DNA of 64,000 nucleotides from an uncultured Candidatus Binatia bacterium (lineage in GTDB: Bacteria > Desulfobacterota > Binatia > DP-6). The position numbers and the translations under genes are program-made. Location of the stretch: positions 104,744-168,743 of the forward strand of contig CAZUDO010000056.1 in the NCBI GenBank assembly GCA_964618895.1, written 5' to 3'. Under the pieces are notes generated by a model, which was given only the letters and a program-made list of their open reading frames with translations, made no database searches and was not told where the DNA came from. Positions 1,497 through 55,161 of the stretch are shown here, in pieces (positions within the stretch are counted from its first letter, which is position 1; each line of letters begins with the position of its first letter).

Positions 1497-1797
1497 TACA
1501 ACCCGACCCAAGACTTCGTCTCGGGTCGGGGCTCAAGATTGCCTGCCGGTGGAGAAGGCGAAGGCCGTGCCGCGGCCGGCGAAGCCGGCGCGGCAAACTT
1601 GGGATAGGACGGACAGAACGTCGGCGCCGCCGCCGACGACGTGTCTCCCGGTCTTCCCGGCCGGAGCGGATCCGCGGCGGCTACTGGTCCGCTCCGCTTT
1701 GCCGCGCCGGCTTTTGCCGGCCGCGGCACGGCCTTCGCCTTCTCCGCCGGCAGGCAATCTTGGGCCCCGACCCGAGACGAAGTCTTGGGTCGATCTC
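1497..1797. repeat. About 300-bp near-perfect palindromic (MITE-like) element with roughly 92-bp inverted-repeat arms, filling the pilT-pilB intergenic region
   Basis: Arm 1 (about 1505-1596) gacccaagacttcgtctcgggtcggggctcaagattgcctgccggtggagaaggcgaaggccgtgccgcggccggcgaagccggcgcggcaa is the reverse complement of arm 2 (about 1698-1790) with about 3 mismatches. The central roughly 100 bp contains an internal palindrome cgtcggcgccgccgccgacg. The element ends ...gtcttgggtcgatctc immediately before the pilB stop codon. Confidence 0.65.
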
Positions 1798-26987: not shown

Positions 26988-27069
26988 GCCGAGGGCGTAG
27001 CGCCCGACCTCGCTCAGCCGCTCGATGTGCGTCGCCTCTGGCGATCGGGGACGGGCCAGTGGCGATCTC

Positions 27070-39291: not shown

Positions 39292-40101
39292 TCACTTCCC
39301 CGTCCACACCGGCCGCCGTTTCTCGACGAACGCCCGTTGCGCCTCGCGCGCGTCGTCGGTGCGGCGGAGGGGGCGGCCGAGCTCTTCCTGGCGGCGGTAG
39401 GCGTCGGGGAGCGGCAGCGGGAGCAGCTCGCGGACGCCGCGGCGGGTCTCGCGCACGGCGAGCGGGGCGTTGGCGGCGATGGCGTCGGCGGCGGCCAGCG
39501 CGGTGGCGAGGAGACGGTCCGGCGGGACGACGGCGTTCACCAGCCCGATCTCGAGCGCCCGCTGGGCGTCGATCGGGCGCGCTGTGAGGAGCAGGTCGTG
39601 GGCGTGCACCCAGCCGATCTGGCGCGGCAGGAGGACGGTCGCATTGCCGGTCGGGTAGAGGCCGAGGGCAACCTCTTCGAATGCGAAGGTGGCATGCGGG
39701 ACGGCGTAGCGGATCTCGGCGGCCAGCAGGAGGTCGAAGCCGGCTGCGCGTGCGTGGCCGTTGACGGCGCACACCAGCGGCGTGTTCAGGTCGAAGCCAG
39801 CGAGGAGTGCGGTGGCGACGCTGCGCAGCCCGGCGAACGTCTCCTCGTCGACACGCTCGCCGCGGGCGAAGCGCTGCGAGGCGGGAATAGTACTCTTCAT
39901 GTCCATCCCGCCGCAGAACACCCGCGCCCCCGCGCCGGTGAGGACGGCGCAGCGGATGTCATCGTCGGCGGCGATGCGCCGCCAGGCGTCGGCGAGCGCG
40001 CACAGGGTGGGGGGATCCAGCGCGTTCGCCTGCGCGGGCCGGTCGATCGTGACCACCGCGACGTGGGGGTGGTCGCCCGGAAGCTCGAGCCGTGCCGCCA
40101 T
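39292..40101 (-). CDS. Enoyl-CoA hydratase/isomerase (crotonase) family protein
   Basis: ALDPPTLCALADAWRRIAADDDIRCAVLTGAGARVFCGGMDM and ...FEEVALGLYPTGNATVLLPRQIG, the oxyanion-hole helices. Confidence 0.85.
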   Translation of the reverse strand: MAARLELPGDHPHVAVVTIDRPAQANALDPPTLCALADAWRRIAADDDIRCAVLTGAGARVFCGGMDMKSTIPASQRFARGERVDEETFAGLRSVATALLAGFDLNTPLVCAVNGHARAAGFDLLLAAEIRYAVPHATFAFEEVALGLYPTGNATVLLPRQIGWVHAHDLLLTARPIDAQRALEIGLVNAVVPPDRLLATALAAADAIAANAPLAVRETRRGVRELLPLPLPDAYRRQEELGRPLRRTDDAREAQRAFVEKRRPVWTGK

Positions 40102-40196
40102 GGCCGCGACGAGGAAAGCATGCGCGCGCGGCCGCGGTCAACGTGTTGGTCCGGGCCTTGACAGCCCGGACACCGGGGGCGCAGTGTCGCCCCACC

Positions 40197-40694
40197 ATGA
40201 GCAAGCCGAGCGACGACAGCGTCACGACGTTCGAGAGCCTCGGCGACACGCTCCGCGCGGCGCGCAAGCTCGCCACCGACCTCGCCGACGAGCCGCTGTT
40301 CGCGCGCTTAGTGAAGGTGTTCCAGGCCATGCCGGCGGAGGATCGCGCCACCGTGATCGACGCCATGGAGCGGGACGTGTACGCGCGCCTGCTCAGCCGC
40401 GCGACCGAGAAGGTCACCGGGCAGGCGGCGCGTCCCAATCCCCATGCCCGGCTCTACGTGCGCTCCCACGGCCCGGAGATGCGGCGCGAGGACCTGGAGC
40501 AGACGGAAATGACGCAGGCCACGCTGCGTGCCATCCGCGTGATGCCGTTCCTGATGATCCCGGAGATCTACGCCGAGTGGCAGCGCGCGACGCATGACGC
40601 CGTGGCACGTACCACGCCCGAGGAGCGCGCCCTGGTGCAGAAACTCGTCGAGGACGTGCTGGGGATGCTGGCGGAGGCGTCGACCCCGGCGTAG
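40197..40694 (+). CDS. Hypothetical protein
   Basis: A 165-aa ORF (MSKPSDDSVTTFESLGDTLRAARKLATDL...) with no recognisable domain; the ATG follows the upstream divergent region. Confidence 0.5.
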   Translation: MSKPSDDSVTTFESLGDTLRAARKLATDLADEPLFARLVKVFQAMPAEDRATVIDAMERDVYARLLSRATEKVTGQAARPNPHARLYVRSHGPEMRREDLEQTEMTQATLRAIRVMPFLMIPEIYAEWQRATHDAVARTTPEERALVQKLVEDVLGMLAEASTPA

Positions 40695-40699
40695 CTAGG

Positions 40700-40826
40700 A
40701 GAGCGACCCGAGACTCCGTCTCGGGTCGTGTACGGACGGCGAGCATGCGGCCCGGTCGACAGGCCAAACGGCGTGCCGCGGCCGGCATTCGCCTGATCCC
40801 CCGGCAAGGAGTCTTGGGTCGATCTC
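40700..40826. repeat. Second, truncated copy of the pilT-pilB palindromic repeat family
   Basis: Shares gacccgagac-tccg-tctcgggtcg (perfect 10-bp hairpin), cgtgccgcggccggc, and the terminal gagtcttgggtcgatctc with the element at 1497-1797; again ends immediately before a minus-strand stop codon (cta at 40827-40829). Confidence 0.55.
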
Positions 40827-41555
40827 CTAACCCCAGGCCGGCGTCAGCGCGCCGTCGGGCGTCCGCCAGTAGGGCGCCCACACGAGTGCCAGGAGCGATA
40901 CGGTGACGCCGCTCTTCTTCGGTCGCAGGGTGATCGTCGCGAGGGCTTCCGCCAGCGGGTCGTGCCGGGCGGCGAGCGCGTCGCTGGCGAATCGCGCTCG
41001 GTCTGCAGGCGACCGATGAACCACGTGCCCGCGTTGGCGAGCCCCTTGTAGTCGAGGTCGACGGGATTCTGCGTGGCGAGCACGACGCCGAGCCCGAATG
41101 CGCGCGCCTGCTTCAATAACAGGAGCAGTGGGCCCTTGGCCGGCGGGTTCGCGACCGGTGGCATGAAGCCGACCACCTCGTCCATCACCAGGAGCGCGCG
41201 CAGGCTGGTGGTGCCGGCCTGCGTGCGCATCCAGGCGAGCACCTGCCCGAGCAGCAACGACACGAAGAACATCCGCTCACCGTCGCCCAGGTGCGCGATC
41301 GACAGGATGGCGACGCGGGGCTTTCCCTGCGGCGTGTAGAGCAGCGCCTGCGGGTCGAGGGGTGTACCCTCGAGCCACACTCCGAACCCGGGCGCGGCGA
41401 GCAGATTGTTGAGCGCCATCGCCAGGGCGAAGCGGTCCTTGGCGGGGAAGAACGACTCCAGCTCGAGCACCCCGATCCGCGTGACGGGCGGCGACTGGAT
41501 ATCCTGGATCAGCGCGCCCGAGGTAGAAGACACCCAGCTTCTCGAAATCGTCCAT
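40827..41555 (-). pseudogene. Degraded HerA/DUF87-like (FEKLG-type) ATPase gene: N-terminal 14 aa joined to the C-terminal region, with internal deletion and two frameshifts
   Basis: Frame a: [14 protein letters not shown] (typical N-terminus of about 500-900-aa DUF87 ATPases). Frame b: ...[71 protein letters not shown] (Walker-B/C-terminal block). Frame c: ...[21 protein letters not shown] stop. No Walker A is present, and the total is only about 730 bp. Confidence 0.5.
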
Positions 41556-41638
41556 GGGAGGCTCCCGTCGCGGAGGCGTAGTCTGCCCCGCGCCGCCCGG
41601 CAGCGTCCAGGGGCGACGGTTGCGCTCGGCGCTCGGAG

Positions 41639-42895
41639 GTGAGCATTGCCCCGCCTCGCCTCACATCGATGACCGCCTCGCCTCCGCACGCCACCGCCAG
41701 TCGCGCAGCCGTCGTCTTCATCTTCTTCACCGCGGTGCTCGACATGCTCGCGCTCGGGATGATCGTGCCCGTACTGCCGAAGCTCGTGGTCACCCTCGAG
41801 GGCGGGGATACGGCGCATGCGGCGCGTATCTTCGGGCTGTTCGGCACGGCCTGGGCCCTCATGCAGTTCTTCTTCTCGCCCGTGCTGGGCGCTCTCTCGG
41901 ACCGGTTCGGGCGGCGCCCGGTGATCCTGCTCTCGAACCTGGGCCTCGGCGTCGACTACGTCTTCATGGCCCTGGCGCCCACGCTGCGCTGGCTGTTCGT
42001 GGGGCGCGTAATCTCGGGCATCACCGCCGCCAGCACCGCGACCGCCGGGGCGTACATCGCCGACGTGACCCCGCCCGAACGCCGCGCGGCCGGCTTCGGC
42101 ATGCTGGGCGCCGCCTTCGGGATCGGCTTCGTGATCGGGCCGGCTGTGGGTGGCTTCCTCGGCACCATCGATCCGCGCCTGCCGTTCTGGGTCGCGGGCG
42201 GGCTGAGCCTGCTGAACGCGCTCTACGGCCTGATCGTGCTGCCCGAGTCGCTCCCGCCGGCGCGACGGGCGCCGTTCTCGTGGCGACGTGCGAACCCGAT
42301 CGGGGCGCTTGGCCTGCTGCGCTCGAACCGTAAGCTGCTCGGCCTCGCGATGGTCAACTTCCTGCGCAATCTGGCGCACGTCGTCCTGCCGAGCACGTCG
42401 GTGTTGTACGTGAGCCACCGGTACGGCTGGGACGGACGCATGGTGGGGCTCAACCTGGCGGCCATCGGCGTGTGCTCGCTGGTCGTCCAGGGCGGTTTCG
42501 TGCAGCCGGTGGTGACGCGCTTCGGCGAGCGCGGCACGTTGGTCGTCGGCATGCTCTGCGGCGTAGCAGGCTTCGCGGTCTCCGGCCTGGCCACCACCGG
42601 CGCGCTCTTCTGGGGCAGCGTGCCGCTGCTGGCGTTGTGGGGGCTATCGGGTCCGCCGCTCCAGGGCCTGATGACCCGTCGCGTCGGTCCCTCCGAGCAG
42701 GGCCAGCTCCAGGGCGCCAACAGCAGCCTGCAGGGCATCGCCCAGCTGATCGGCCCCGGCATCTTCACGGTGGCCTTCGCCAACGGTATCGACCCCCACC
42801 ACAGCTGGGACGTCCCCGGCGCAGCCTTCCTGCTCGGCGCCCTCCTGCTGGTGGTGGCGACAACGGCCGCGTGGCGCGTGACGCAAGCGCGCTAG
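41639..42895 (+). CDS. MFS transporter (DHA1 / TetA-like efflux family)
   Basis: 12 transmembrane segments; motif A-like [14 protein letters not shown]; the start may be the internal ATG at 41669 (MTASPP...). Confidence 0.85.
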
Positions 42896-42979
42896 CGCCG
42901 CCACTACACCTACGCGGGCTCCACGGTCGTCCTCGAGAGGCGGTGGAGGTGCCTGCCCCCGCGTGCTACCGGCTGGTGC

Positions 42980-43774
42980 ATGGACCTGGCGGCCTTGTGC
43001 GAGCTCTCGGACCTCAACATGGCGGAGGCGTTCCGCGAGCTGACGCGACGCGCCGGCGGGACCGTCCTCGACGAGGACGGCCTGCTCATGTTTGCCGGCC
43101 CGCACCCGCTGCCGGTGCTCGTCAACGGCGTCTTCCGGACGAGCGCCCGGGTGGAGGCGGCCGAGGTGCTGGCACGCGCCGACCGGTTCTTCGGCGCGCG
43201 CGGGCGGGGCTATACGGTCATCGTGCGCGCGCATGCTGATACCGACCTGCAGGCGGCCGCGGAGGCGGCCGACCTGGCGTCGTTCGGGGCGACCCCGGCG
43301 ATGGTGCTCGACCATCGCCTGCCCCCGGCCGATCCGCCGGCCGGCGTCGAGCTCCGGCGCGTCACCACGCCCGCCGACGTGGACGGCTTTGCGCGCGTCA
43401 ACGCCGAGGCGTACGCGACCTACGGCATGCCGCCCGACTGCGCCCTGGCACAGCTCACCCACGCGCCGGTCCTGGCGGCGCCGCACATCGCCGCCTTTGT
43501 CGCCTGCGTCGACGGCGCCGCCGTGGCGGCGGCGATGACCATCGTCACGCACGGCGTCGCCGGCATCTACTGGGTGGGAACGGTGCCTGCGGCGCGGGGC
43601 CGGGGACTGGCCGAGGTGTGCACGCGCGCGGCCGGCAACGCCGGCTTCGATCTCGGGGCGCGCATGGCCGCTCTGCAGGCGTCGCCCATGGGCGAGCCCG
43701 TGTATCGCCGCATGGGGTATGTCGAGGTGACGCGCTATCCCCAGCTGGTGCGGTTCGCGCCGGCTGCTGCCTGA
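42980..43774 (+). CDS. GNAT-family N-acetyltransferase
   Basis: C-terminal acetyl-CoA-binding segment VGTVPAARGRGLAEVCTRAAGNAGFDLG...VYRRMGY typical of GNAT motifs A/B. Confidence 0.75.
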   Translation: MDLAALCELSDLNMAEAFRELTRRAGGTVLDEDGLLMFAGPHPLPVLVNGVFRTSARVEAAEVLARADRFFGARGRGYTVIVRAHADTDLQAAAEAADLASFGATPAMVLDHRLPPADPPAGVELRRVTTPADVDGFARVNAEAYATYGMPPDCALAQLTHAPVLAAPHIAAFVACVDGAAVAAAMTIVTHGVAGIYWVGTVPAARGRGLAEVCTRAAGNAGFDLGARMAALQASPMGEPVYRRMGYVEVTRYPQLVRFAPAAA

Positions 43775-43787
43775 CGCCAGCCTGGCG

Positions 43788-44078
43788 TCAGTTCCAGCTG
43801 CCGGCCGACGCGTAGGTGAGGACGGCACTACACTGCGGGCACTTGATACGCTCCGCCAGGCCGTCGAGGAGCTTGAGCAGCCCGTTGCAGTGGGTGCAGC
43901 GGCGGTCGCGCCGATCGACCCGCTTGTCGGACAGGTCGATGACCGAGATCTCCTTGCATGCCTCGCACAGGGCGAGGCCGCCCCAGTAGCTCGCGCGGCC
44001 GGCCTTGCCCCAGCCGACCTGCAGCTTACCGCTCACAAAGGCGCAAGTCGGACAGCGGTATTCGACGACGGATCCCAT
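43788..44078 (-). CDS. Small double zinc-ribbon protein (4x CxxC)
   Basis: 96 aa with CPTC, CEAC, CTHC and CPQC arranged as two ribbon pairs; no other domain. Confidence 0.55.
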   Translation of the reverse strand: MGSVVEYRCPTCAFVSGKLQVGWGKAGRASYWGGLALCEACKEISVIDLSDKRVDRRDRRCTHCNGLLKLLDGLAERIKCPQCSAVLTYASAGSWN

Positions 44079-44185
44079 GGTGTATGCGTGAACGCCAACT
44101 GAATCGCTCAGTGGCGCACCGCTGTCAACCCTTCACGGCGGCCTCTGGCGCGCCGCGGGGCGGGTCTGGTACATCGGGCAGGGCC

Positions 44186-44965
44186 ATGGATTCGGCGGCG
44201 ACGGTCGATCTCGGGTCGCAGCATCTGCACGGCACGCGGGCCGATGGTGTCCTGCGCGTCGTCATCGACCGGCCCGCGCGCAAGAACGCGCTCACGATCG
44301 AGATGTACCACGGCCTCAAGAAGGCCGCGGTGCTCGCCGGACGCGACGCGACGGTCGACGTGCTGGTGGTCACGGCGGTCGGCGATACGTTCTGTGTCGG
44401 CGGCGAGATGGGGGGCAAGCACGAAGGCGGTGCTCCGATCGACCGCGAGACCGACGGCATCGACCTGCTGCCGTTCGTCCAGTTCGAACGCTGCCCCAAG
44501 ATCGTCGTGCTCGGCATCAACGGCATGTGCCAGGGCGGGGGCCTCAACCTGACGCTCATGTCCGACATCGCGATCGCCTCCGAGCGTGCCGTGTTCCGCG
44601 CCCCCGAGCTGCTGCGCGGCGTGGCCGACTGCTTCCTCGGCGCGCGGCTGGCCAGCCGCGTGGGGATCGCGCGCGCCAAATATCTGCTGTTCACTGCCCA
44701 GCAGCTGACGGCGGCCGAGGCGCTCGCCATGGGTCTCGTGGCCCGCGTCGTTCCGCACGACGGCCTCGAGGCCGCCGTCACCGAGACCATCGGCTGGATC
44801 CGGCAGACCGGCCCCGCGGCCCGGACCGCGCTCAAGCGCGACCTCAATCGGCACCTGCCGCCCATCGACGTGCCCATGTTCGTCGACTCGCTGGCGTCGG
44901 ACGAGGTGCGCGAGGGGTTCGCGGCCTTCGTCGAGAAGCGCCCGCCGGGCTGGGTGCGCAAATGA
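44186..44965 (+). CDS. Enoyl-CoA hydratase/isomerase (crotonase) family protein
   Basis: VIDRPARKNALTIEMYHGL...VGDTFCVGGEMGG...LGINGMCQGGGLNLTLMSDIAIASERAVF, the canonical crotonase fold motifs; start at the internal ATG with a better context. Confidence 0.85.
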   Translation: MDSAATVDLGSQHLHGTRADGVLRVVIDRPARKNALTIEMYHGLKKAAVLAGRDATVDVLVVTAVGDTFCVGGEMGGKHEGGAPIDRETDGIDLLPFVQFERCPKIVVLGINGMCQGGGLNLTLMSDIAIASERAVFRAPELLRGVADCFLGARLASRVGIARAKYLLFTAQQLTAAEALAMGLVARVVPHDGLEAAVTETIGWIRQTGPAARTALKRDLNRHLPPIDVPMFVDSLASDEVREGFAAFVEKRPPGWVRK

Positions 44966-44992
44966 CGCATGGCCGCCGCCCGCGCCCCGCCT

Positions 44993-45020
44993 CTTGACGA
45001 AACGAACGTTCGTTCGTTAG
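44993..45020 (+). promoter_or_regulatory. Candidate -35 box plus 14-bp perfect palindromic operator upstream of the TetR gene at 45030
   Basis: cttgacga followed by AACGAACGTTCGTT (45001-45014, perfect palindrome) 10 bp before the GTG/ATG of the TetR gene; a typical TetR autoregulatory arrangement. Confidence 0.5.
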
Positions 45021-45029
45021 AGACGGAGT

Positions 45030-45752
45030 GTGCCGGTCGTCGCCGCCAGCCGACGGCCGCGCGAGGCGAGCGCCACGGCGCCACCCACGCGCGAGCTGAT
45101 CCTCGACACCGCCGAGCGGTTGTTCTCCGCCCGTGGCGTGGACGGGGTGGCGGTGCGCGACCTCGCCCGCGAGATGGGCATCACGGCGTCGAGCCTCTAC
45201 AACCATTTCCCCGGCAAGCAGGCGCTGTACGATGCCGTGCTCGAGCGCGGCCTCGGGCCGATCGTGAGCGTGGTGGCGGAAGCCTGGCACCCCGGGGTGG
45301 TGCGCCCGGAGCAGGTGCAGGCGACGCTCGACCGGCTGACCGAGCACCTGGCGCGTCATCCGCACCTGGCGCGCCTGCTGCAGCGGGCCCTGCTCGAAGA
45401 CGCGGGTGCCGTGCAGACGCTCCTCGACCGGTGGCTCAGCTCGCTCTATCGCGAGGGCATCGCCGTCGTGCGCCGGATGGCGCGCGACGCCGGCTGGGAG
45501 GAGGAGCAGGTGCCGCATCTGGGCATCGCCCTCTTCGGGATGATCTTCGCCTACTTCACCAACCCCGCCGCGCTCCGGCGGCTCACCGGCTGGCGCGACG
45601 AGCCCCTGTCGGCGCACGGCCTGCAGGTGCAGCAACGTTTCCTGGCCGAAGCAGTGCTGCGCCTGCTCGGTCCACGACCGCAGGGCGCGGCGGCCCGCGC
45701 CAAACCCCCCACGCCAACCGGCGCACGACGACGGAGGTCCCCCCATGGCTGA
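45030..45752 (+). CDS. TetR-family transcriptional regulator
   Basis: HTH RGVDGVAVRDLAREMGITASSLYNHFPGKQALY; paralogous to the TetR at 28280; 3' end overlaps the next gene. Confidence 0.85.
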   Translation: MPVVAASRRPREASATAPPTRELILDTAERLFSARGVDGVAVRDLAREMGITASSLYNHFPGKQALYDAVLERGLGPIVSVVAEAWHPGVVRPEQVQATLDRLTEHLARHPHLARLLQRALLEDAGAVQTLLDRWLSSLYREGIAVVRRMARDAGWEEEQVPHLGIALFGMIFAYFTNPAALRRLTGWRDEPLSAHGLQVQQRFLAEAVLRLLGPRPQGAAARAKPPTPTGARRRRSPHG

Positions 45753-46863
45753 ACACGGCACAATCACCGACGAGGGTATCGAGAAGCTGAAGACCCGCAT
45801 CGGGAAGGGCTTCGAGGGGCGCCGCCCGTGGCGCACGGAGGTGACGCGCGACGCCATCTATCACCTGGCGTTCGCGATCGGCGACCTGAACCCGCTCTTC
45901 CTCGACGAGGACTACGCCAAGCGGACGCGCTGGGGCACGCTCATCGCCCCGCACATCATGATCCAGAGCATGGACACCCTGCGCGCCGTTGGCCACAGCG
46001 GGTTGCCCGAAGGGCTGCCCGGCGTGCACTCCATCTGGACGGGCTCGCGCTACGAGTGGAAGCGCCCGCTCAAACTGGGCGACCGCATCTCGGCCAAGTC
46101 GTGCCTGAAGGCGATCGCCGAGAAGCAGAGCACCTTCGGCGGGGGCCGGTCGCTCTACCAGACCTACGAGGCGGTGTACCACGATCAGCACGGCGAGTAC
46201 GTCGGCGTGCGCAACGACACCTGGATCCGCATCGAACGGGCGGCCACGCGCGAGAAGAAGAAGTACGGCGACATCCAGCTGGCACAGTGGAAGCCCGAGG
46301 ACATCGCCCGCTTCCAGGAGGACTACCGCCGCCAGACGCGCGTCGCCGAGCGCTGGTGGGACGACGTGCAGGTGGGCGACACGATGGGCTCCCCCATCAT
46401 CAAGGGACCGCTCACGCCCACGGCCGAGATCGCCTTCGAGTCGTTCTTCGGCGTCTATCTGGTCGGCAACATCGTCGCCATGCGCTTGTACGAGAAGCAC
46501 CCCGCGCTCATGATCCCGAACGAGCAGGGCGTACCGGAGCCGCCGCAGCGGGTGCACTGGGACAACGCCTTCACGCAGCGCCTGCTCGGGCTCCCCGGCG
46601 CCTACGACCTCGGGCCGGAACGCTGTGCCTGGCTCATCCAGGGCGCGACCGACTGGATGGGCGACAACGGCCACCTGGCGACCATCGAGGCGCGCTACCA
46701 CAAGTTCAACTACATGGGCGACGTGACCTGGATCCGTGGCAAGGTCGCCGACAAGTTCGAGCGCGACGGCACGGCCATGGTGCGCTGCGCGATCGAGACC
46801 GTGAACCACCGCGACGAGGTATCGGCGTCGGCGACGGTCGAGATCGAGCTGCCGCGGCGCTAG
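45745..46863 (+). CDS. Double-hotdog MaoC-like acyl dehydratase (fused N- and C-terminal hotdog domains)
   Basis: A 372-aa protein with two hotdog halves (IYHLAFAIGDLNPLFLDEDYAK... and ...GNIVAMRLYEKHPALMIPNEQGVPE...); resembles fused HadAB/ChsH-type hydratases. Confidence 0.8.
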   Translation: MAEHGTITDEGIEKLKTRIGKGFEGRRPWRTEVTRDAIYHLAFAIGDLNPLFLDEDYAKRTRWGTLIAPHIMIQSMDTLRAVGHSGLPEGLPGVHSIWTGSRYEWKRPLKLGDRISAKSCLKAIAEKQSTFGGGRSLYQTYEAVYHDQHGEYVGVRNDTWIRIERAATREKKKYGDIQLAQWKPEDIARFQEDYRRQTRVAERWWDDVQVGDTMGSPIIKGPLTPTAEIAFESFFGVYLVGNIVAMRLYEKHPALMIPNEQGVPEPPQRVHWDNAFTQRLLGLPGAYDLGPERCAWLIQGATDWMGDNGHLATIEARYHKFNYMGDVTWIRGKVADKFERDGTAMVRCAIETVNHRDEVSASATVEIELPRR

Positions 46864-49124: not shown

Positions 49125-49281
49125 GTTTGCCCGTCACCGCCCGGCTCGAGGGCCGGAAATCTGCGGGATGACGAAAGATTTCCATTGACTACGTGTGCGG
49201 CAGTCATGGTAACCATCCCGGGTGGCCCGGCGGGTTGTACCTGGCAGGTGCGACCTGCGGGCGATGGACAGGGAGATACCC

Positions 49282-52200
49282 ATGGGCGATCGGCGTCTTA
49301 CTGCCACGGGGCATCCTCGACGGGGGTGGGGAAGGTCCCTCGTGCATCTCGCGGTGCTCGTGGCCGTGGGGGTGTCTGTTCGGCCCGCGACCGGAACGCC
49401 CGCGCCGCAGATACTGAGCGACATCCACCCCACCGGCACCTCGACATCCACCCGGCTGGTCGGGGTCGGCAGCACGTACTTCTTCCAGGCCGACGACGGC
49501 GTCAACGCCCGCGAGCTCTGGAAAACGGATGGCACCGGCGCCGGCACGACCCTGGTCGCCGACATCTGGCCCGGGGGAGGGGCGCCGGGTTCGCAACCGG
49601 CGAACGTCGTCAACCTCGGCGGCACGGCGGTGTTCGCGGCCGACGATGGCACCAACGGCCGCGAGCTGTGGACCAGCAACGGGACCGCCGGCGGCACCGC
49701 CTTGCTGGTCGACATCCGCCCCGGCGCGAGCGGGTCGTCGCCCAACTTCCTGGTCACCATCGGCAGCCTGGTGTTCTTCTCGGCCGACGACGGTAGCAAC
49801 GGCCGCGAGCTGTGGACGAGCGACGGGACCGCCGGTGGCACTGCGTTGCTGGCCGACATCCGCCCGGGCGCGGCCGCGTCGTCGCCGTCGAACCTGGTTG
49901 CCGTCGGCACCCGACTCTTCTTCACCGCCGACGACGGCACCAACGGCGTCGAGCTGTGGACGAGCGACGGCACGGGGCTCGGCACGGTCCTGGTGAAGGA
50001 CATCGTCGCGGGCGCGAGCGGGTCGTCGCCGTCCAATCTGGTGGCGGTCGGCGGGCAGCTCTACTTCGCGGCCTCCGACTCTACCAACGGCAACGAGCTC
50101 TGGACCAGCGACGGCACGACGGTCGGCACCGTGCTGGTGAAGAACATTCGCGCCGGGTCCTCCAGCTCGGCGCCGTCGAGCCTGGTCGACTTCGGTGGCA
50201 CGCTCGTCTTCTCTGCCGACGACGGCGTGGTCGGGCGCGAATTGTGGAAGAGCAACGGGACGGCGGCTGGGACCGTGCTCGTGAAGGACATCTTCACCGG
50301 CGCGTCCGCGTCCTCGCCGGCGAACCCGACGGCGATCGGCACGACGCTGTTCTTCTCCGCCAGCACGGGCAGCGGCACCGAGCTGTGGACGAGCGACGGC
50401 ACGGCGGGCGGGACGGTGCTGGTGAAGGACATCGCCCCGGGCAGTCCCAGCTCGTCCCCGGCGCAGCTCGCCGCGGTCGGCTCCATCCTCTACTTCCGCG
50501 CCACCGACGGTACCAACGGCGCCGAGCTGTGGCAGAGCGACGGCACGGCCGCCGGAACGGTCATGGTCGCGAACATCGCCCCCGGGGCGGCCTCGTCGAC
50601 GCCCACCAACCTCTCCGTCGGGGCCGGCACGCTGTTCTTCGCTGCCGACGACGGCGTACGGGCCAACGAGCCGTGGGTGCTGCTCGCGTCGTGCGGTAAT
50701 GGTGCGCTCAACCCCGGCGAGGCCTGCGACGACGGCAACGCCGTCGACACGGACGCCTGCAGCAACGACTGTACGCTCACCGGCTGCGGCAACGGCGTGG
50801 TCGCGGGTGCGGAGGAGTGCGACGACGGCAACCAGGCGGCGGGCGATTGCTGCGCCCCGACGTGCACGTTCGAGAGCAGCGGCAGTGCCTGCGCCTCCGA
50901 CCTCGACGCCTGCACGGACGACGAGTGCGACGGCGCCGGCGCGTGCACGCATCCGCCGGCCGCGGCCGGTACGCCGTGCGGGGATCCGGGCGTCTCGCCG
51001 TGTGACGCGGCCGACAGCTGCGACGGCGCCGGGACGTGCGACCAGAACCTGGTGGCGGCGGGCACCCCGTGCCCCGACGACGGTCTGGCCTGCCGCCTGG
51101 ATCAGTGCGACGGCGCCGGCGCCTGCGACCATCCGCTGGCCGGTGCGGGGACCGGGTGCCGCCCGGTCGCGGGGGCGTGCGACGTTGCCGAGAGTTGCGA
51201 CGGTCTGGACGAGAACTGTCCGGCGGACGGTTTCGCGGCCGACACGGTGGTCTGCCGTCCCGCGGCCGGGCCGTGCGACGTGGACGAGCTGTGCACGGGG
51301 GCGAGCGCTGCGTGCCCCGCCGACGTGAAGAGCACCGCCCTCTGTCGCCCGAGTGCGGGCGACTGCGACGTCGACGAGTCCTGCGACGGCGTGAGCGACG
51401 CGTGTCCCGCGGACGGGTTCCAGTCGGGCACCGTCGTGTGCCGGCCGGCGGTCGGCCCGTGCGATGCCGCCGATACGTGTACCGGGACGAGCGCGTCGTG
51501 CCCCGCCGATGGCAAGAGCACGGCGGTCTGCCGTCCCGCCGCCGGCCCCTGCGATCTGATCGAGAGCTGCGACGGCGTGAGCGACGCCTGCCCGACCGAC
51601 GCGAAGAGCACCGGCATGTGCCGTCCCGTGGCGGGCGCGTGCGATGTGGCGGAGACCTGTGACGGCGGCAGCGACGACTGTCCGGTGGACACGTTCGAGG
51701 CCGCGGGTACGGAGTGTCGTCCAGCCCTCGGCATCTGCGATCTGCCCGAGTTCTGCTCCGGCACCGAGGCCCCGTGTCCCACCGACGTGACCGTGGCCGA
51801 TGGTACCCCGTGCGACGATGCCAGTGTCTGCACCCAGAGCGACGCCTGCCTGGCCGGCGCGTGCGTGGGCACGTCCCTCGATTGCGACGACGGGAACCCG
51901 TGCACGCAGGATACGTGCGACCAGGGGAACGGCTGCGAGAACGAGACCGCCCCCGCCACCGGCTGCCGGGGTGCGCTCACGTCGAAGCTGATTTTCAAAC
52001 GCAACCCGATCGACCACACCAAGGACCTGCTCAAATGGGTATGGGCCAAGGGCCAGGCCACGACCCTCGCGGAGCTGGGGACGCCGATCACCACCACCGA
52101 CTACGACCTGTGCGTCTACGACGGCACCAATCAGGTGCTCGCCCGCGTACACGTGCCGGGGGGGTCGAGCGCGTGGGCGGCGTTGGGGAACGCCGGCTTC

Positions 52201-52455
52201 CGCTACAAGGACGTGACGACCGCCAGCGACGGCGCCCGCAACCTGGTGGTGAAGAGCGGGCTCACCAACAAGGCCAAAGTGGCGTTCACGGGCAAGGGCA
52301 CGAATCTGCCCGATCCGCCCGCGGGCGCGCTCACCCTGCCGATCACGACACAGGTCACGAACGGGACCGTGTGCTTCGAGGGCACGTACGCCCCGGCGCA
52401 CGTGATCCTGAACGACGCCACCCGGTTCTCGGCCAAGGTCGTCCCGGCGCCGTAG
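49282..52455 (+). CDS. Large secreted ELWxxDG-repeat (beta-propeller) protein with a C-terminal array of Myxococcales cysteine-rich repeats and a distal beta-rich domain
   Basis: Signal peptide; eight 48-aa repeats of the form ELWTSDGTAGGTxLVxDIxPGxxxSSPxxLxxVGxxLFFxAxDGxNG; then CGNGxxxPGExCDDGN and DxCDGxGxCxH repeats (the pattern described for Myxococcales Cys-rich repeats); start at ATG 49282 with a GGGAGA RBS (alternative 49264). Confidence 0.8.
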   Translation: MGDRRLTATGHPRRGWGRSLVHLAVLVAVGVSVRPATGTPAPQILSDIHPTGTSTSTRLVGVGSTYFFQADDGVNARELWKTDGTGAGTTLVADIWPGGGAPGSQPANVVNLGGTAVFAADDGTNGRELWTSNGTAGGTALLVDIRPGASGSSPNFLVTIGSLVFFSADDGSNGRELWTSDGTAGGTALLADIRPGAAASSPSNLVAVGTRLFFTADDGTNGVELWTSDGTGLGTVLVKDIVAGASGSSPSNLVAVGGQLYFAASDSTNGNELWTSDGTTVGTVLVKNIRAGSSSSAPSSLVDFGGTLVFSADDGVVGRELWKSNGTAAGTVLVKDIFTGASASSPANPTAIGTTLFFSASTGSGTELWTSDGTAGGTVLVKDIAPGSPSSSPAQLAAVGSILYFRATDGTNGAELWQSDGTAAGTVMVANIAPGAASSTPTNLSVGAGTLFFAADDGVRANEPWVLLASCGNGALNPGEACDDGNAVDTDACSNDCTLTGCGNGVVAGAEECDDGNQAAGDCCAPTCTFESSGSACASDLDACTDDECDGAGACTHPPAAAGTPCGDPGVSPCDAADSCDGAGTCDQNLVAAGTPCPDDGLACRLDQCDGAGACDHPLAGAGTGCRPVAGACDVAESCDGLDENCPADGFAADTVVCRPAAGPCDVDELCTGASAACPADVKSTALCRPSAGDCDVDESCDGVSDACPADGFQSGTVVCRPAVGPCDAADTCTGTSASCPADGKSTAVCRPAAGPCDLIESCDGVSDACPTDAKSTGMCRPVAGACDVAETCDGGSDDCPVDTFEAAGTECRPALGICDLPEFCSGTEAPCPTDVTVADGTPCDDASVCTQSDACLAGACVGTSLDCDDGNPCTQDTCDQGNGCENETAPATGCRGALTSKLIFKRNPIDHTKDLLKWVWAKGQATTLAELGTPITTTDYDLCVYDGTNQVLARVHVPGGSSAWAALGNAGFRYKDVTTASDGARNLVVKSGLTNKAKVAFTGKGTNLPDPPAGALTLPITTQVTNGTVCFEGTYAPAHVILNDATRFSAKVVPAP
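49513..50680. repeat. Intragenic array of about eight diverged 144-bp (48-aa) ELWxxDG repeats
   Basis: The periodicity is visible in the translation (ELWKTDGT..., ELWTSNGT..., ELWTSDGT... x6); the DNA copies are diverged (protein-level repeats). Confidence 0.7.
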
Positions 52456-52515
52456 CGTGTTGTTCGTATGACGGGGCACGGTCGGGCGCGCGCCCAGGGC
52501 GGGCTCCAGGGGGGG

Positions 52516-55161
52516 ATGGCCATGGGTGCAGTACGCGTCCTCGGTGTCGCGGTGGTGCTGGCCGCCGGGTTCGTGGCGCGGCCTGTCCGCGCGGCCGTGC
52601 TCGCCGAGTCGATCAGCGTCTCGGGCGACAGCATCGCCCGCGGCTACGACGCCAACACCAGCGCGTGCAACTACGGCGACAACGTCTCCCGCAACTGGGC
52701 CACCGGCGACACCCACGGCGGCAGCTTCTGCGCGGCGGGCGGCGAGGGCACCTTCAGCCACGCCGAGCGCCTCGAATGCGCCAAGGGCGGCAACGTCACC
52801 ATCTTCAACGACGCGGCCAGCGGCGCCGACATGCTGAGCGACTTCTACAACCAGGCGGTCAACATCAAGCTGAACCTCTCGTCGTCACTGGCGCCGCGCT
52901 ACGTGCCGGTGTTCATGGGCCACAACGACATCTGCACCAACACCGAGACCAGAACCGGCAACGCCTGCGGCGGCGACGACGACCCGAACAACTACTGCCG
53001 CACCGCCCCGGCGGCCTTCGAGCGCGAGTTCCGCCGTGGCATGGACCAGCTGATCCAGATCCCAAGCGTCCGCATCGGCGTATCGGCGGTGGTGCGCGTC
53101 TCCGAGCTGTGCAACTTTACCGGCAAGAGCGGCTGTGGGATCACGCTCGGCCTGCCGTGCAGCTCGGTGTGGGGTCTGGTCGACATCTGCGCCTCGCTCA
53201 CCAAGGACTGCTCGAACCAGCGGCGCATCGACGCGTATCTGACGGCGCTGGCGTACAACCAGATCCTGGAGGTGGTGACGGCCGAGTATGCTGCCATCTC
53301 CACGGGCGGGATGTCGCTCACCGGCGCGGTCAAGGCGCCCGACGTGGCCATCCGCTACAGCGAAGGCGCGTTCTTCTTCAAGTTCGCGAGCGCCGACGTG
53401 TCGTGTTGCGACTGCTTCCATCCCTCCGACCTGGGGCAATCGAAGATGGCGCAGTTCGGCTGGGACGGTCTGCAGTGCAGCGGCACCACGCCCTGCTGCG
53501 GGACCAGCGGCGATCCGCTCACGGACGCGATGTGCTCGCTGGTCGACACGGCGACGTTCTACCCGTCGGGCTTCTGGCCCGGCGGCATGCCGTGCGGCAA
53601 CGGCATTCTGGATCCCATGGAGCAGTGCGACGACGGCAACGCCCTCGACGGCGACTGCTGCTCGTCGTCGTGTACCTTCGATCCGGGCGGCACCCCGTGC
53701 GCGAGCGACGGCAACGTGTGCACGGACGACGTGTGCAACCCGACCGGCGGCTGCACCCATCCCGCCAATGCCGCGCCGTGTGGCGACGGGTTCTTCTGCA
53801 CCGTCAACGACACGTGCAGCGGCGGATCGTGCGCCGGCACGGCGCGCGACTGCTCCAGCGCCGGCAATCAGTGCAACGTCGGCGTCTGCGACGAAGCGCA
53901 GGACCAGTGCGTCGCGCAGCCAGTGTCGAACGGGACCGGCTGCATCGACGGCGACGCGTGTACGCAGACCGACACCTGCCAGAACGGGACGTGTACGGGC
54001 GCGAACCCCGTGGTGTGTACGGCCCAGGACCAGTGCCACGACGCCGGCACGTGCAATCCGCTGACAGGCGTGTGCTCGAACCCGGCCAAGGCGAACGGGA
54101 CCGCGTGTGCCGACGGCGACGCGTGTACGCAGACCGACACCTGCCAGGGCGGGACGTGTACGGGCGCGAACCCCGTGGTGTGTACGGCCCAGGACCAGTG
54201 TCACGACGCCGGCACGTGCAATCCCCTGACCGGTGGGTGCTCCAACCCGGCCAAGGCGAACGGGACGGCGTGCACGGACGGTGACGCGTGCACGCAGACC
54301 GACACCTGCCAGGCCGGGACCTGTACGGGCACGAACCCCGTCGTGTGCACCGCCCAGAACCAGTGTCACGACGCCGGCACGTGCAATCCGGGGACGGGCG
54401 TGTGCTCCAATCCGGCCAAGCCGGACGGCAGTGCCTGTAGCGACGGCAACGCGTGCACGGCCGCCGACCAGTGTGTCGCCGGCGTGTGCCAGGGCGGGGC
54501 GCCGCCGTGCGGCGACGGGATCGTGCAGGCCAGCTGCGGCGAGCAGTGCGACGACGGCGCTGCCAACGGCACGAACCAGTGCTGTTCGGCCACCTGCCAA
54601 CGGGTCGACGGCGACGGCGACGGCCTCTGCAACCGCGACGACCCGTGCACCGGCCTGGCCGGGCTGATCAAGCAGCGCATCACCATCACGCGTCTCGATA
54701 CGCCGCCCGGCGACGACCGCTTGAGCATCAAGGGCGACGGCATCCTGCCGTTCCCCTTCGCGCCGGCGCTCAACCCGATCGCGAACGGCGCCCGCCTGCT
54801 GGTCGAGCGTACAGGGGGCACCCTCGTCGATGTGACCCTGCCGGGCCTGGCGTGGACCGGCACCGTCGGCTGGCGCGTCAACGCCGCTGGCAACACGTTC
54901 ACGTGGACCGACAAGACGACCACGCCGCCGGGCGGTATCACGCGCTTCAAGGTCAAGCAGGTGGCGGCCACGCCGGGGCTGGTGCAGGTACGGGCCAAGG
55001 GGCTCGGGTCGTACAGCGTCACCGTCGGCGACCTGCCGCTCCGATTCACGGCCGTGCTCGACCCGCCGACCGCCGAGACGGGGCAGTGCGGCGAGGCGAC
55101 GTTCCCGGGGCCCCTGCCCCCGAGCTGTGTGCTGGTGGCGGCGAAGCTGACCTGTAAGTAG
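52516..55161 (+). CDS. Secreted SGNH/GDSL-type hydrolase fused to Myxococcales cysteine-rich repeats and a C-terminal beta domain
   Basis: Signal peptide; block I GDSIARGYD (catalytic Ser); block III GHNDIC; block V DCFHPSDLG (Asp/His); then CGNGILDPMEQCDDGN plus three tandem CTQTDTCQxGTCTGANPVVCTAQDQCHDAGTCNP repeats. Confidence 0.8.
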   Translation: MAMGAVRVLGVAVVLAAGFVARPVRAAVLAESISVSGDSIARGYDANTSACNYGDNVSRNWATGDTHGGSFCAAGGEGTFSHAERLECAKGGNVTIFNDAASGADMLSDFYNQAVNIKLNLSSSLAPRYVPVFMGHNDICTNTETRTGNACGGDDDPNNYCRTAPAAFEREFRRGMDQLIQIPSVRIGVSAVVRVSELCNFTGKSGCGITLGLPCSSVWGLVDICASLTKDCSNQRRIDAYLTALAYNQILEVVTAEYAAISTGGMSLTGAVKAPDVAIRYSEGAFFFKFASADVSCCDCFHPSDLGQSKMAQFGWDGLQCSGTTPCCGTSGDPLTDAMCSLVDTATFYPSGFWPGGMPCGNGILDPMEQCDDGNALDGDCCSSSCTFDPGGTPCASDGNVCTDDVCNPTGGCTHPANAAPCGDGFFCTVNDTCSGGSCAGTARDCSSAGNQCNVGVCDEAQDQCVAQPVSNGTGCIDGDACTQTDTCQNGTCTGANPVVCTAQDQCHDAGTCNPLTGVCSNPAKANGTACADGDACTQTDTCQGGTCTGANPVVCTAQDQCHDAGTCNPLTGGCSNPAKANGTACTDGDACTQTDTCQAGTCTGTNPVVCTAQNQCHDAGTCNPGTGVCSNPAKPDGSACSDGNACTAADQCVAGVCQGGAPPCGDGIVQASCGEQCDDGAANGTNQCCSATCQRVDGDGDGLCNRDDPCTGLAGLIKQRITITRLDTPPGDDRLSIKGDGILPFPFAPALNPIANGARLLVERTGGTLVDVTLPGLAWTGTVGWRVNAAGNTFTWTDKTTTPPGGITRFKVKQVAATPGLVQVRAKGLGSYSVTVGDLPLRFTAVLDPPTAETGQCGEATFPGPLPPSCVLVAAKLTCK
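53947..54441. repeat. Three near-identical tandem 165-bp (55-aa) coding repeats
   Basis: gacggcgacgcgtgtacgcagaccgacacctgccag...ggcgaacgggac(c/g)gcgtg(t/c)(gcc/acg) recurs at 53947, 54112 and 54277 with more than 90% identity (DGDACTQTDTCQxGTCTGANPVVCTAQDQCHDAGTCNPLTGxCSNPAKANGTAC). Confidence 0.85.

Follow-up and report, generated by a model that had tools for sequence, protein, structure and literature searches.

A dead ATPase gene lies on the minus strand of the 64,000-nucleotide stretch of DNA analysed here (the window). It was very probably disabled by two internal deletions, with a palindromic repeat inserted, as a separate event, at its stop codon. Three pieces, running from position 41555 to 40827, are collinear with a single gene family. 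Since the 242 codons that are left are spread over three segments and two reading frames, the locus is a pseudogene, and what it represents is ordinary gene decay, not a new system. The coordinates of all features are collected in Table 1.

Pseudogenes and MITEs are both common, and the locus matters little alone. It does have a consequence for annotation, in that the locus, where the public record has a 229-aa ORF, should be marked as a pseudogene. In addition, a highly conserved and widely transferred HerA-like family can evidently be dispensed with in this lineage and lacks an operon partner, which speaks against assigning it by default to the two-gene HerA defence systems.

Table 1. Features of the ATPase pseudogene, the repeat and their surroundings (positions are those of the window).
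Feature	Position	Strand	Details
Pseudogene segment 1	41514..41555	-	ATG 41555 and codons 1-14; frame -3; tblastn, 35-homologue alignment
Deletion junction 1	41513..41516	-	codon 14 to codon ~222, frame -3 to -1; tblastn, alignment, Logan contig L081
Pseudogene segment 2	40991..41515	-	central block LIQDIQSPP...GRLQTERD, ~222-396 of homologues; frame -1
Deletion junction 2	40989..40993	-	D396 to F~757, frame -1 back to -3; tblastn, alignment, Logan contig L083
Pseudogene segment 3	40827..40991	-	native C-terminus and stop TAG 40829-40827; frame -3
229-aa ORF in the public record (P0001)	40844..41533	-	GTG 41533, through segment 2, then out-of-frame tail
134-bp MITE-like palindromic repeat	40696..40829	.	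between two convergent stop codons; terminal inverted repeats 40696-40725 and 40800-40829
Related repeat, pilB-pilT spacer	1503..1797	.	two inverted ~95-nt units; same family
165-aa hypothetical gene	40197..40694	+	convergent; stop TAG 40692-40694, 1 nt before repeat; gene call on L083

The ATPase remnant

When compared by tblastn with seven intact homologues, segment 1 is identical to L022 at 14 of 14 residues and to L002 at 13 of 14, and it occupies columns 1-14 in an alignment of 35 full-length homologues. At the first junction about 207 codons (~aa 15-221) are gone, and with them the Walker A motif, which reads GMTGSGKTG at residues 43-51 and is invariant in all 35 homologues. Segment 2, an uninterrupted stretch of 175 codons, matches homologues of 807-838 aa at 70-81% identity (E 1e-80 to 1e-87) and keeps Walker B (LLVMDE) together with the downstream core as far as GRLQTERD. 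About 360 further codons (~aa 397-755) are missing at the second junction. Segment 3 matches the C-termini of the homologues over their last ~50 residues (E 1e-7 to 1e-13; residues 756-807 in L008). The homologues also end one residue after a conserved ...PAW, that is, at the same stop position as the remnant.

Altogether, ~570 of ~810 codons (about 70%) are absent. The locus contains no single uninterrupted ORF of ~790-860 codons, and the ORF that begins at ATG 41555 ends at 41277 after 92 aa, most of them out of frame. A P-loop motif ([AG]xxxxGK[ST]) is not present in any frame of 40700-41700. Given that no frame keeps the nucleotide-binding loop, the remnant is unable to act as an ATPase.

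Much of this had been recognised in a preliminary description of the DNA, made from the sequence alone. The hallmark N-terminus on the minus strand, the shifts of frame into a conserved block and then into the extreme C-terminus, the missing Walker A and the much greater length of intact members (several hundred aa longer) all hold. The block containing LVMDEVVGF had been taken as C-terminal, but it is central; only segment 3 corresponds to the extreme C-terminus. Likewise, an internal deletion is borne out, but not one deletion accompanied by independent frameshifts: the tblastn searches and the alignment to intact homologues, both suggested at the time, mapped two deletions, and each junction is itself the change of frame.

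The ancestor would have been a full-length (~810 aa) stand-alone ATPase gene of the HerA/FtsK superfamily, convergent to the 165-aa gene and divergent from an MFS transporter gene. No intact gene was found at the same locus in close relatives, and it is for this reason that the ancestral state is one that we infer. Two illegitimate deletions, of ~0.62 kb and ~1.08 kb, are the presumed mechanism; the first would have taken the P-loop, the second what remained of the ATPase domain along with most of the C-terminal half, and both would have shifted the reading frame.

GC3 is 0.92 in segment 2 and 0.90-0.92 in the surviving pieces, which is host-like. The mean identity of segment 2 to the 35 intact homologues is 76%, that of the homologues among themselves 79%. 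Where 90% or more of the sequences agree in a column, segment 2 deviates 6 times and intact members 0-11 times. At otherwise invariant columns segment 2 has two substitutions, Y331V and S347A, when compared to a leave-one-out mean of 0.31 and a maximum of 3 for intact members. The host-like GC3 and a degree of conservation within the range of intact homologues suggest that the decay is fairly recent.

The intact family and its relationship to HerA

Intact members of the family are ~790-860 aa in length and occur in many phyla, archaea included. The family ('MxDFEKLGxFYLGR ... PAW', ~810 aa) is labelled 'ATP-binding protein' by NCBI, with no specific name; examples are found at 9335-11755 of L008 and 9335-11773 of L028. 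The remnant shares with it the N-terminal motif, the central block (77-81% identity) and the C-terminal LVALxWxPxW...PAW, in that order and in the right orientation, as well as the native start and stop positions; it differs in the lost codons, among them those for Walker A, and in the change of frame between segments. A search at E <= 1e-30 gave 789 clusters; in the 150 representatives listed from them, the central block normally lies at ~222-396 of proteins of ~780-860 aa, and no natural short form of ~240 aa is found among these representatives. One homologue search listed only proteins of <=305 aa, many with out-of-frame tails. These were read as the result of a length bias in the picking of candidates and of fragmented metagenome genes, and not as a natural short form.

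Searches of Pfam with the three translated fragments gave no match to DUF87 (PF01935) or HerA_C (PF05872). Against Pfam and NCBIfam there were only sub-threshold matches, to Zot, UreE and the NCBIfam model HerA_antiphage (21.8 bits, with a cut-off of 800). Because the fragments have no usable match, the family assignment was taken from the intact homologues. These pass the Pfam thresholds marginally (DUF87 25.7 vs 23.2, HerA_C 26.2 vs 22), over residues 32-79 only, the region of Walker A. A profile of the family matches the HerA structures 8wiv and 7f6d (E 3e-6 to 7e-4). PADLOC HerA models match the intact homologues (E 1e-6 to 1e-10) and, within segment 2, the stretch of Walker B and core (E 4e-6 to 2e-5). 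By sequence comparison, the family is a distant ATPase of the HerA/FtsK superfamily, with HerA assigned at the superfamily level only. The earlier designation as HerA/DUF87-like is thus sound at that level, but it does not extend to Pfam matches of the fragments, and in the homologues it is marginal. The intact family is widespread, stand-alone and functionally uncharacterised.

The HerA ATPases (archaeal HerA-NurA, bacterial SIR2-HerA and HerA-DUF4297) belong to the same P-loop superfamily, but the likeness does not go beyond the ATPase core. In the family described here only ~35 residues precede Walker A, and there is a C-terminal extension of ~400 aa, in which no Pfam family was found in the two homologues scanned. 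A NurA, SIR2 or DUF4297 partner is not adjacent to it in any lineage-independent way. The best PADLOC match of the intact homologues is mad8 (PDLC04140; E 1.4e-13, 49 bits, over the ATPase core). The MADS defence operon comprises 8 genes (10.1101/2023.03.30.534895), whereas the family is a single gene with no other mad genes nearby and is more than twice as long as the mad8 profile (314 positions).

Alternative accounts of the remnant

Two Logan contigs from run SRR9952630, reached via P0122, a neighbouring protein, and via the 165-aa protein, agree with the window at 100% identity over 39455-46589, including the repeat and both junctions (L081 spans the first, L083 the second), and an assembler artefact is therefore unlikely. 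Such an artefact would mean that the genome has an intact gene of ~2.4 kb and that both 'deletions' were made by the assembler. The source is evidently a metagenome-assembled contig (222,319 nt at NCBI, with the identical Logan contigs), and the family is conserved between organisms even in its DNA (80% nucleotide identity to L002), making shared k-mers and graph branches possible; the Logan contigs do break inside segment 2, at 41086-41105. However, what shared k-mers yield is chimeras or broken contigs; they do not produce two precise deletions inside a gene whose true start and stop are kept. Internal repeats able to cause a collapse were not seen, and the same sequence runs over both junctions in two different assemblies, so that we regard this explanation as very improbable. 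Population heterogeneity or low-coverage errors may be present, as both assemblies may share the same reads. The break in the Logan contigs could be a graph branch to a variant or to the copy of another organism.

The 229-aa ORF is a gene-caller by-product of the pseudogene. It is 100% identical to P0001, from the 222,319-nt NCBI contig, and the tail of P0001 is without homology. Conceivably, the ORF (GTG 41533 to 40844) might be expressed as a HerA core lacking Walker A, modulating or poisoning the hexamers of a full-length paralogue elsewhere. It is predicted by the gene caller, the native promoter region is intact, and the 175 uninterrupted codons of segment 2 are conserved as well as in intact homologues; yet the ORF has no P-loop, starts at an internal GTG without support, ends in ~50 residues of out-of-frame junk and includes the two substitutions at invariant positions. 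No comparable short form is among the 150 representatives listed from the 789 clusters (E <= 1e-30), and tblastn found no full-length paralogue in the 64-kb window. An expressed modulator is extremely improbable, and much less likely than the family of stop-codon MITEs discussed below.

The preliminary description had also suggested that the locus might be what remains of a lost defence module; in a module of several genes, a HerA-type ATPase would have been accompanied by a nuclease or other effector. Between two ECH_1 crotonase genes are found, as it had listed, a 165-aa hypothetical protein, an MFS transporter, a GNAT acetyltransferase and a Zn-ribbon protein. That these form an accessory patch is weakly supported. 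Synteny with the nearest syntenic relative (L089) breaks right after the 165-aa gene, which in L089 is followed by a CoA-transferase, but GC and GC3 are host-like and the composition test gives no foreign-island signal. The 165-aa protein has no Pfam or PADLOC match and belongs to a small conserved family, of which 17 proteins and 70 metagenome loci were traced. On the contig of P0124, which at 63% identity is the closest of the 17, lies a convergent gene of 235 aa that is cut by the contig end.

Bacterial HerA is indeed known from two-gene antiphage systems, SIR2-HerA (PMC11472057) and HerA-DUF4297 (10.1101/2024.10.24.620088). A patchy distribution over phyla including archaea, with 70-80% identity in the core block, would fit an accessory, horizontally moving gene. 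The PADLOC matches of intact homologues, to HerA models and, at E 1.4e-13, to mad8, would favour a defence module, weak as they are. The surroundings do not bear this out. Among 80 intact loci, which come from many phyla, the gene has no neighbour in common; the largest clusters of neighbours comprise 10-12 of the 80 loci and reflect lineage-specific synteny, largely of the Nitrospira type. None of 74 other loci with the 165-aa gene family has the ATPase near it, no PADLOC model matched the neighbours in the window, and nothing like the 8-gene MADS operon (10.1101/2023.03.30.534895) is present at the locus. A remnant of a partner nuclease, which had been proposed as a check, was not found; 40101-44186 is wholly taken up by called genes, leaving no space for one and no unassigned DNA between the crotonase genes. 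With no common neighbour in the 80 loci and neither a defence-like neighbour nor a nuclease remnant in the window, the idea of a lost defence module is unsupported, and we consider it improbable.

The repeat at the stop codon

The 30-nt terminal inverted repeats of the 134-bp element are 83% complementary (terminal sequence GGAGAKCGACCC), and TA is found at both flanks (40696-97 and 40828-29). A perfect inner 11-bp hairpin is located at 40704-40728, and the predicted fold of the repeat has an energy of -81 kcal/mol (z -4.8 and -5.7). An ORF of 40 aa or more that is fully contained in 40696-40829 does not exist. In its small size, in the inverted repeats at its ends and in the lack of an ORF, the element has the features of a MITE. 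GGAGAKCGACCCRAGAC is a sequence motif of the repeat.

The window contains one complete copy and, between pilB and pilT, an inverted pair, the right tip of which (GGGTCGATCTC) directly abuts the pilB stop TGA (1800-1798). In relatives, one complete and one partial copy were found. The former (L146) ends TA-GGAG...CTCC-TA, with the TAG at its tip serving as the stop of a fatty-acid hydroxylase gene; the latter is on L117. The length of the element varies (134 vs 287 bp) and its ends are conserved. A search with nhmmer over 1.59 Mb of loci gave no further copies, and the only match to the terminal motif elsewhere in the window, at 27059, is at chance level and was rejected as a copy, being a stop codon with an SD-like GGAG after it. 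A blastn match at 9774-9843 lies inside dnaK and was likewise dismissed as chance. Rfam gave no match at the gathering threshold and one chance match at a permissive threshold. A scan for intrinsic terminators was negative, with no U-tract after the stem on either strand. No empty site for the repeat was found in the loci searched, and the window showed no transposase with matching ends.

The TAG of the ATPase gene (CTA on the plus strand, 40827-40829) lies in the right terminal inverted repeat, as had been noticed earlier, and at the ancestral stop position. As the homologues end at the same place, the gene is not cut short by the repeat. The repeat does abut the gene, but to say that it supplies the stop codon is an overstatement: the position is native, and the pre-insertion sequence GGT TAG CTA would already have contained TAG. 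Assuming that the TA at the flanks represents a target-site duplication, the element contributes no more than the third base (G) of the stop.

Most likely, then, the element inserted into the TA of an existing stop and rebuilt that stop, and did not create a new one. The site before insertion (TAG-CTA) would have consisted of two abutting convergent stops. A non-autonomous element of 134 bp, presumably transposing in a TA-targeted manner, would have entered the TA of the gene's own TAG, and TAG would have been regenerated because the element begins with G, which would explain why the stop looks as if it were supplied by the repeat. Since no empty site was found, the TA could instead be part of the terminal repeat and not a target duplication.

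When the window and L146 are considered together, three tips of the element fall exactly on gene stops (those of the ATPase pseudogene, the fatty-acid hydroxylase and pilB), while a fourth follows a stop at a distance of 1 nt. In the window, which has a GC content of 70%, TA is strongly depleted (662 observed vs 1437 expected). We tentatively suggest, as a possibility that falls short of being probable, an undescribed MITE family of Binatia-like soil bacteria with 70% GC, which inserts into the TA of stop codons and rebuilds the stop with its own first base, such that gene ends might be preferred, harmless landing sites in TA-starved genomes. The repeat might otherwise be a resident extragenic palindrome, similar to REP or ERIC sequences, that spreads in some way other than transposition, forms a stem-loop at mRNA ends and owes its position after stops to this function and not to an insertion preference. 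The very stable hairpin (-81 kcal/mol), the three tips that lie on the stops of real genes or 1 nt beyond them, the pilB copy without a TA flank and the lack in the window of a transposase with matching ends would all agree with such a palindrome. We nevertheless think it rather unlikely: 30-nt terminal inverted repeats with TA at both flanks in both complete elements are a classic MITE signature, the length varies while the ends are conserved, no U-tract lies behind the stem on either strand, and Rfam has no match.

TA-flanked MITEs include the Correia elements of Neisseria and MITEs derived from IS630/Tc1. In architecture, as these are generally described and leaving sequence aside, the element resembles them: it is short and non-coding, has imperfect terminal inverted repeats of ~30 nt, TA flanks and a hairpin formed by the whole element, and the copies seen in the window and in relatives vary in length and lie in spacers at gene ends. 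It differs in being found in an uncultured lineage with 70% GC, in the coincidence of its tip with stop codons and in the lack of an Rfam match. As a MITE, the repeat would be a small example, open to testing, of a mobile element that lands on stop codons where the genome is poor in TA. The copy at pilB is preceded by TGA, not TAG, before GAGATCGACCC, which the TA model leaves unexplained. The association of the repeat with stop codons is in itself a minor curiosity.

Decay of a HerA-like ATPase gene

The minus-strand locus at 41555-40827 represents ordinary gene decay beside a small mobile or palindromic repeat. A tblastn search of the whole window (GC content 70%) with seven intact homologue proteins as queries gave significant matches only in the remnant, where they are collinear. 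The three frames thus match a single ATPase family in order, confirming the HerA-like remnant of the preliminary description. In an alignment with 35 full-length homologues, the pieces map to residues 1-14, 222-396 and 756-807 of the 807-aa protein from L008, one of the loci with an intact gene. The ATG at 41555 opens a 14-residue N-terminal motif, after which its frame continues through unrelated sequence to a stop at 41277, after 92 codons. The central block lies in a second frame, and the C-terminal 54-residue piece returns to that of the ATG, terminating in TAG (plus-strand CTA, 40827-40829).

Since there are only two junctions, with zero additional sequence between the segments, the gene has suffered two internal deletions, each frame-shifting. 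The internal deletion proposed earlier therefore stands, except that there are two and that they themselves account for the frameshifts. At 41513-41516, deletion 1 has brought codon 14 next to codon ~222, with loss of ~207 codons including the motif GMTGSGKTG, which is invariant at homologue residues 43-51. Deletion 2, at about 40991, fuses D396 to F~757 and has cost ~360 codons. The Walker A motif is missing, as had been noticed: [AG]xxxxGK[ST] is absent from every frame of 40700-41700. From an original length of about 2.43 kb, 242 codons (726 nt) survive. The two sides of each junction could have shared 2-4 nt at most, and the deletions might have arisen by illegitimate recombination or replication slippage, which would fit such short sharing. 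The pseudogene assignment is thus supported and can be made more precise: the start and stop are native, the P-loop is lost, and both deletions shift the frame.

Features of the remnant locus and its surroundings (window positions, except for the intact example genes, which are given in their own loci)
Feature	Position	Strand, frame	Remarks
Crotonase (ECH_1)	39292-40101		Left border of patch
165-aa gene	40197-40694		Between crotonases, before repeat
Repeat	40696-40829		134 bp
Segment 3, last ~50 residues	40985-40833	-, frame -3	tblastn, E 1e-7 to 1e-13
Segment 2, residues ~222-396	41515-40991	-, frame -1	tblastn, 70-81% identity, E 1e-80 to 1e-87
Segment 1, residues 1-14	41555-41514	-, frame -3	tblastn, 14/14 identical to the homologue at L022
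Divergent spacer			113 nt, between pseudogene and MFS transporter
MFS transporter	41669-42895
GNAT acetyltransferase	42980-43774
Zn-ribbon protein	43788-44078
Crotonase (ECH_1)	44186-44965		Right border of patch
Intact gene, L028	9335-11773
Intact gene, L008	9335-11755

It is unlikely that the deletions were created by one particular assembler. The window sequence is matched by a 222,319-nt NCBI contig, and two Logan contigs of run SRR9952630, 100% identical to window 41086-46589 (L081) and 39455-41105 (L083), together cover both junctions and the repeat with the same sequence, although the two assemblies may derive from the same reads. The Logan contigs overlap by just 20 nt (41086-41105), and the break falls where the pseudogene is most conserved; we suspect a graph branch due to copies from other community members, and an alternative allele may also be the cause.

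Segment 2 has a mean identity of 76% to the 35 intact homologues, compared with 79% among the homologues themselves. Of the 106 columns with >=90% conservation, 6 are mismatched in segment 2 (intact members 0-11, mean 3.3), and two otherwise invariant positions are altered, Y331V, adjoining Walker B, and S347A; in a leave-one-out comparison, intact members show a mean of 0.31 such changes and a maximum of 3. The homologous frames have GC3 values of 0.92 and 0.90, against 0.87-0.93 in resident genes. These comparisons are read as pointing to a resident gene whose inactivation was probably fairly recent; any sign of relaxed constraint is faint at most.

The intact family and its neighbourhoods

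A scan with the central block, limited to one genome per species, found 587 relatives, of which the best 80 were fetched (L001-L080). In these the gene is a single uninterrupted ORF of about 790-860 codons once trimmed to the conserved start, with the N-terminus M-x-D-[FY]-E-K-L-G-x-F-Y-L-G-[RK] and the C-terminus ...LVALAWAPxW....PAW-x-stop. Conservation is striking, with a mean column identity of 69% over the full length. When 1.84 billion representative proteins were searched exhaustively, 789 clusters were obtained at E <= 1e-30; their full-length members carry the block at ~222-396 of ~780-860-aa proteins, and no natural ~240-aa short form appears among the 150 representatives listed. That the first homologue search listed nothing longer than 305 aa is attributed to length-based candidate selection and fragmented metagenome genes, and has no bearing on the family's real size.

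The earlier HerA/DUF87-like label holds at the superfamily level only. The remnant fragments match no Pfam model. Two intact homologues pass DUF87 (25.7 and 23.5 bits, cut-off 23.2) and one of them HerA_C (26.2, cut-off 22), with matches spanning only residues 32-79, around Walker A. In the two homologues scanned, the ~400-residue C-terminal extension has no Pfam match; this region includes a hydrophobic G-rich stretch and a coiled-coil-like part. NCBIfam gave only far-sub-threshold matches, to CedD, CedB, TraD and HerA. In PADLOC, mad8 ranks first (E 1.4e-13), ahead of several HerA models. Structures matched by the family profile are IcmO/DotL and, among HerA proteins, 8wiv (E 3e-6) and 7f6d. 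By these matches, the family is a remote branch of the HerA/FtsK superfamily without a name of its own. Members occur in Nitrospirota, Acidobacteriota, Planctomycetota, Chloroflexota, Methylomirabilota, Myxococcota and also archaea, with a core identity of 70-80%, a patchy spread that is compatible with an accessory, horizontally moving gene.

The suggestion that the locus is the scar of a lost defence module was not supported. The HerA systems described from bacteria consist of two-gene operons (PMC11472057; 10.1101/2024.10.24.620088) and MADS is an eight-gene operon (10.1101/2023.03.30.534895), whereas the present ATPase is stand-alone in the 80 intact loci. When their neighbours were clustered both as greedy ORFs and as all stop-free segments within 3.5 kb, the biggest families spanned only 10-12 of 80 loci, largely Nitrospira-type and thus local synteny. 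In the window, none of the four neighbours matched PADLOC, and the 165-aa gene occurs without the ATPase in 74 other loci. As the interval between the crotonases is completely filled, in the order 165-aa gene, repeat, pseudogene, spacer, MFS, GNAT and Zn-ribbon, there is neither a partner nor room for the remnant of one, such as a nuclease. The proposed accessory nature of the patch gains mild support from the closest syntenic relative, L089 (crotonase 86%, 165-aa protein 71% identical), where the gene after the 165-aa one encodes a family III CoA-transferase, but not from composition, which is not atypical.

The 165-aa family (window and L084-L157) is small and conserved, with an invariant NPxARLY.R motif and no Pfam domain. 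Most members come from soil metagenome contigs; in the closest relatives the gene adjoins an enoyl-CoA hydratase.

The repeat and adjoining stop codons

The 30-nt terminal arms of the repeat, TAGGAGAGCGACCCGAGACTCCGTCTCGGG and CCCGGCAAGGAGTCTTGGGTCGATCTCCTA, are 83% complementary, and the element contains an inner, perfect hairpin of 11 bp. Folding of the complete element gives -81 kcal/mol (z -4.8 and -5.7). In the pilB-pilT spacer, two inverted units (1503-1597 and 1697-1797) can be aligned with it over about 110 nt. Further copies were found among loci fetched for other reasons: a 287-bp element on a related soil-metagenome contig (L146, 2081-2367), with ends identical to those in the window, TAGGAGGTCGACCCAAGAC...GTCTTGGGTCAGGCTCCTA, and a partial copy at a contig end (L117). 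Both complete elements have the ends TA|GGAG...CTCC|TA. The L146 flanks read GCGC-TA...TA-GCGC, and therefore its pre-insertion site would be the palindrome GCGCTAGCGC.

The coincidence of repeat tips with stop codons is the only mildly unusual feature of the locus. The pseudogene stop is the TAG at the right tip, within the terminal motif as previously described, and the TAG of the 165-aa gene (40692-40694) ends 1 nt before the left tip. Removal of the element and one TA gives ...GCG TAG C TA ACC..., i.e. TAG|CTA, two convergent stops back to back, in which the minus-strand codon remains TAG. Because homologues end exactly at this position, the repeat occupies an already existing, native stop, and the idea that it supplies the stop goes too far. 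In L146 a fatty-acid hydroxylase gene (Pfam FA_hydroxylase, E 3e-28) terminates at the left-tip TAG. The dinucleotide TA is more than two-fold depleted in the window (662 observed, 1437 expected) and CTAG about 16-fold (11 observed, 176 expected). The left end of the repeat accounts for at least 2 of the 11 CTAG sites, within GTAGCTAGGAG.

We infer, as the preferred reading, TA-targeted insertion on stop codons: in a TA-poor genome, a TA-targeting non-autonomous element would land disproportionately on stops, where insertion might be tolerated because its first G restores TAG. The pilB stop, immediately before GAGATCGACCC, is TGA (1798-1800) and does not fit this model; no empty site was found in the loci examined, and the window shows no transposase whose ends match. 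The alternative is a REP/ERIC-like structural palindrome, but a defined RNA role lacks support since the repeat has no U-tract terminator and no Rfam family matches it.

The spacer between pilB and pilT (T2SSE ATPases) is filled by the two inverted ~95-nt units. The left unit lacks the GGAGA tip, and the right tip of the 1503-1797 copy, GGGTCGATCTC, abuts the pilB stop, TGA and not TAG. The pair looks like a rearranged or decayed composite.

Other features of the window

Two large secreted-type proteins built of cysteine-rich repeats are encoded at 49222-55161 (Pfam Disintegrin, E 4e-30), with DUF4215 sub-threshold in both (26.6 and 20.9 bits, cut-off 27); the second also matches GDSL lipase. 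The DNA encoding them is tandemly repeated, with periods of 144, 165 and 186 nt. The window probably derives from an uncultured, Binatia-like soil bacterium, since its DnaK (8814-10730) is 87% identical to Candidatus Binatia or Binatus proteins and 86% to those of 'Deltaproteobacteria bacterium', and its closest matches (90%) are on soil-type JGI metagenome contigs.
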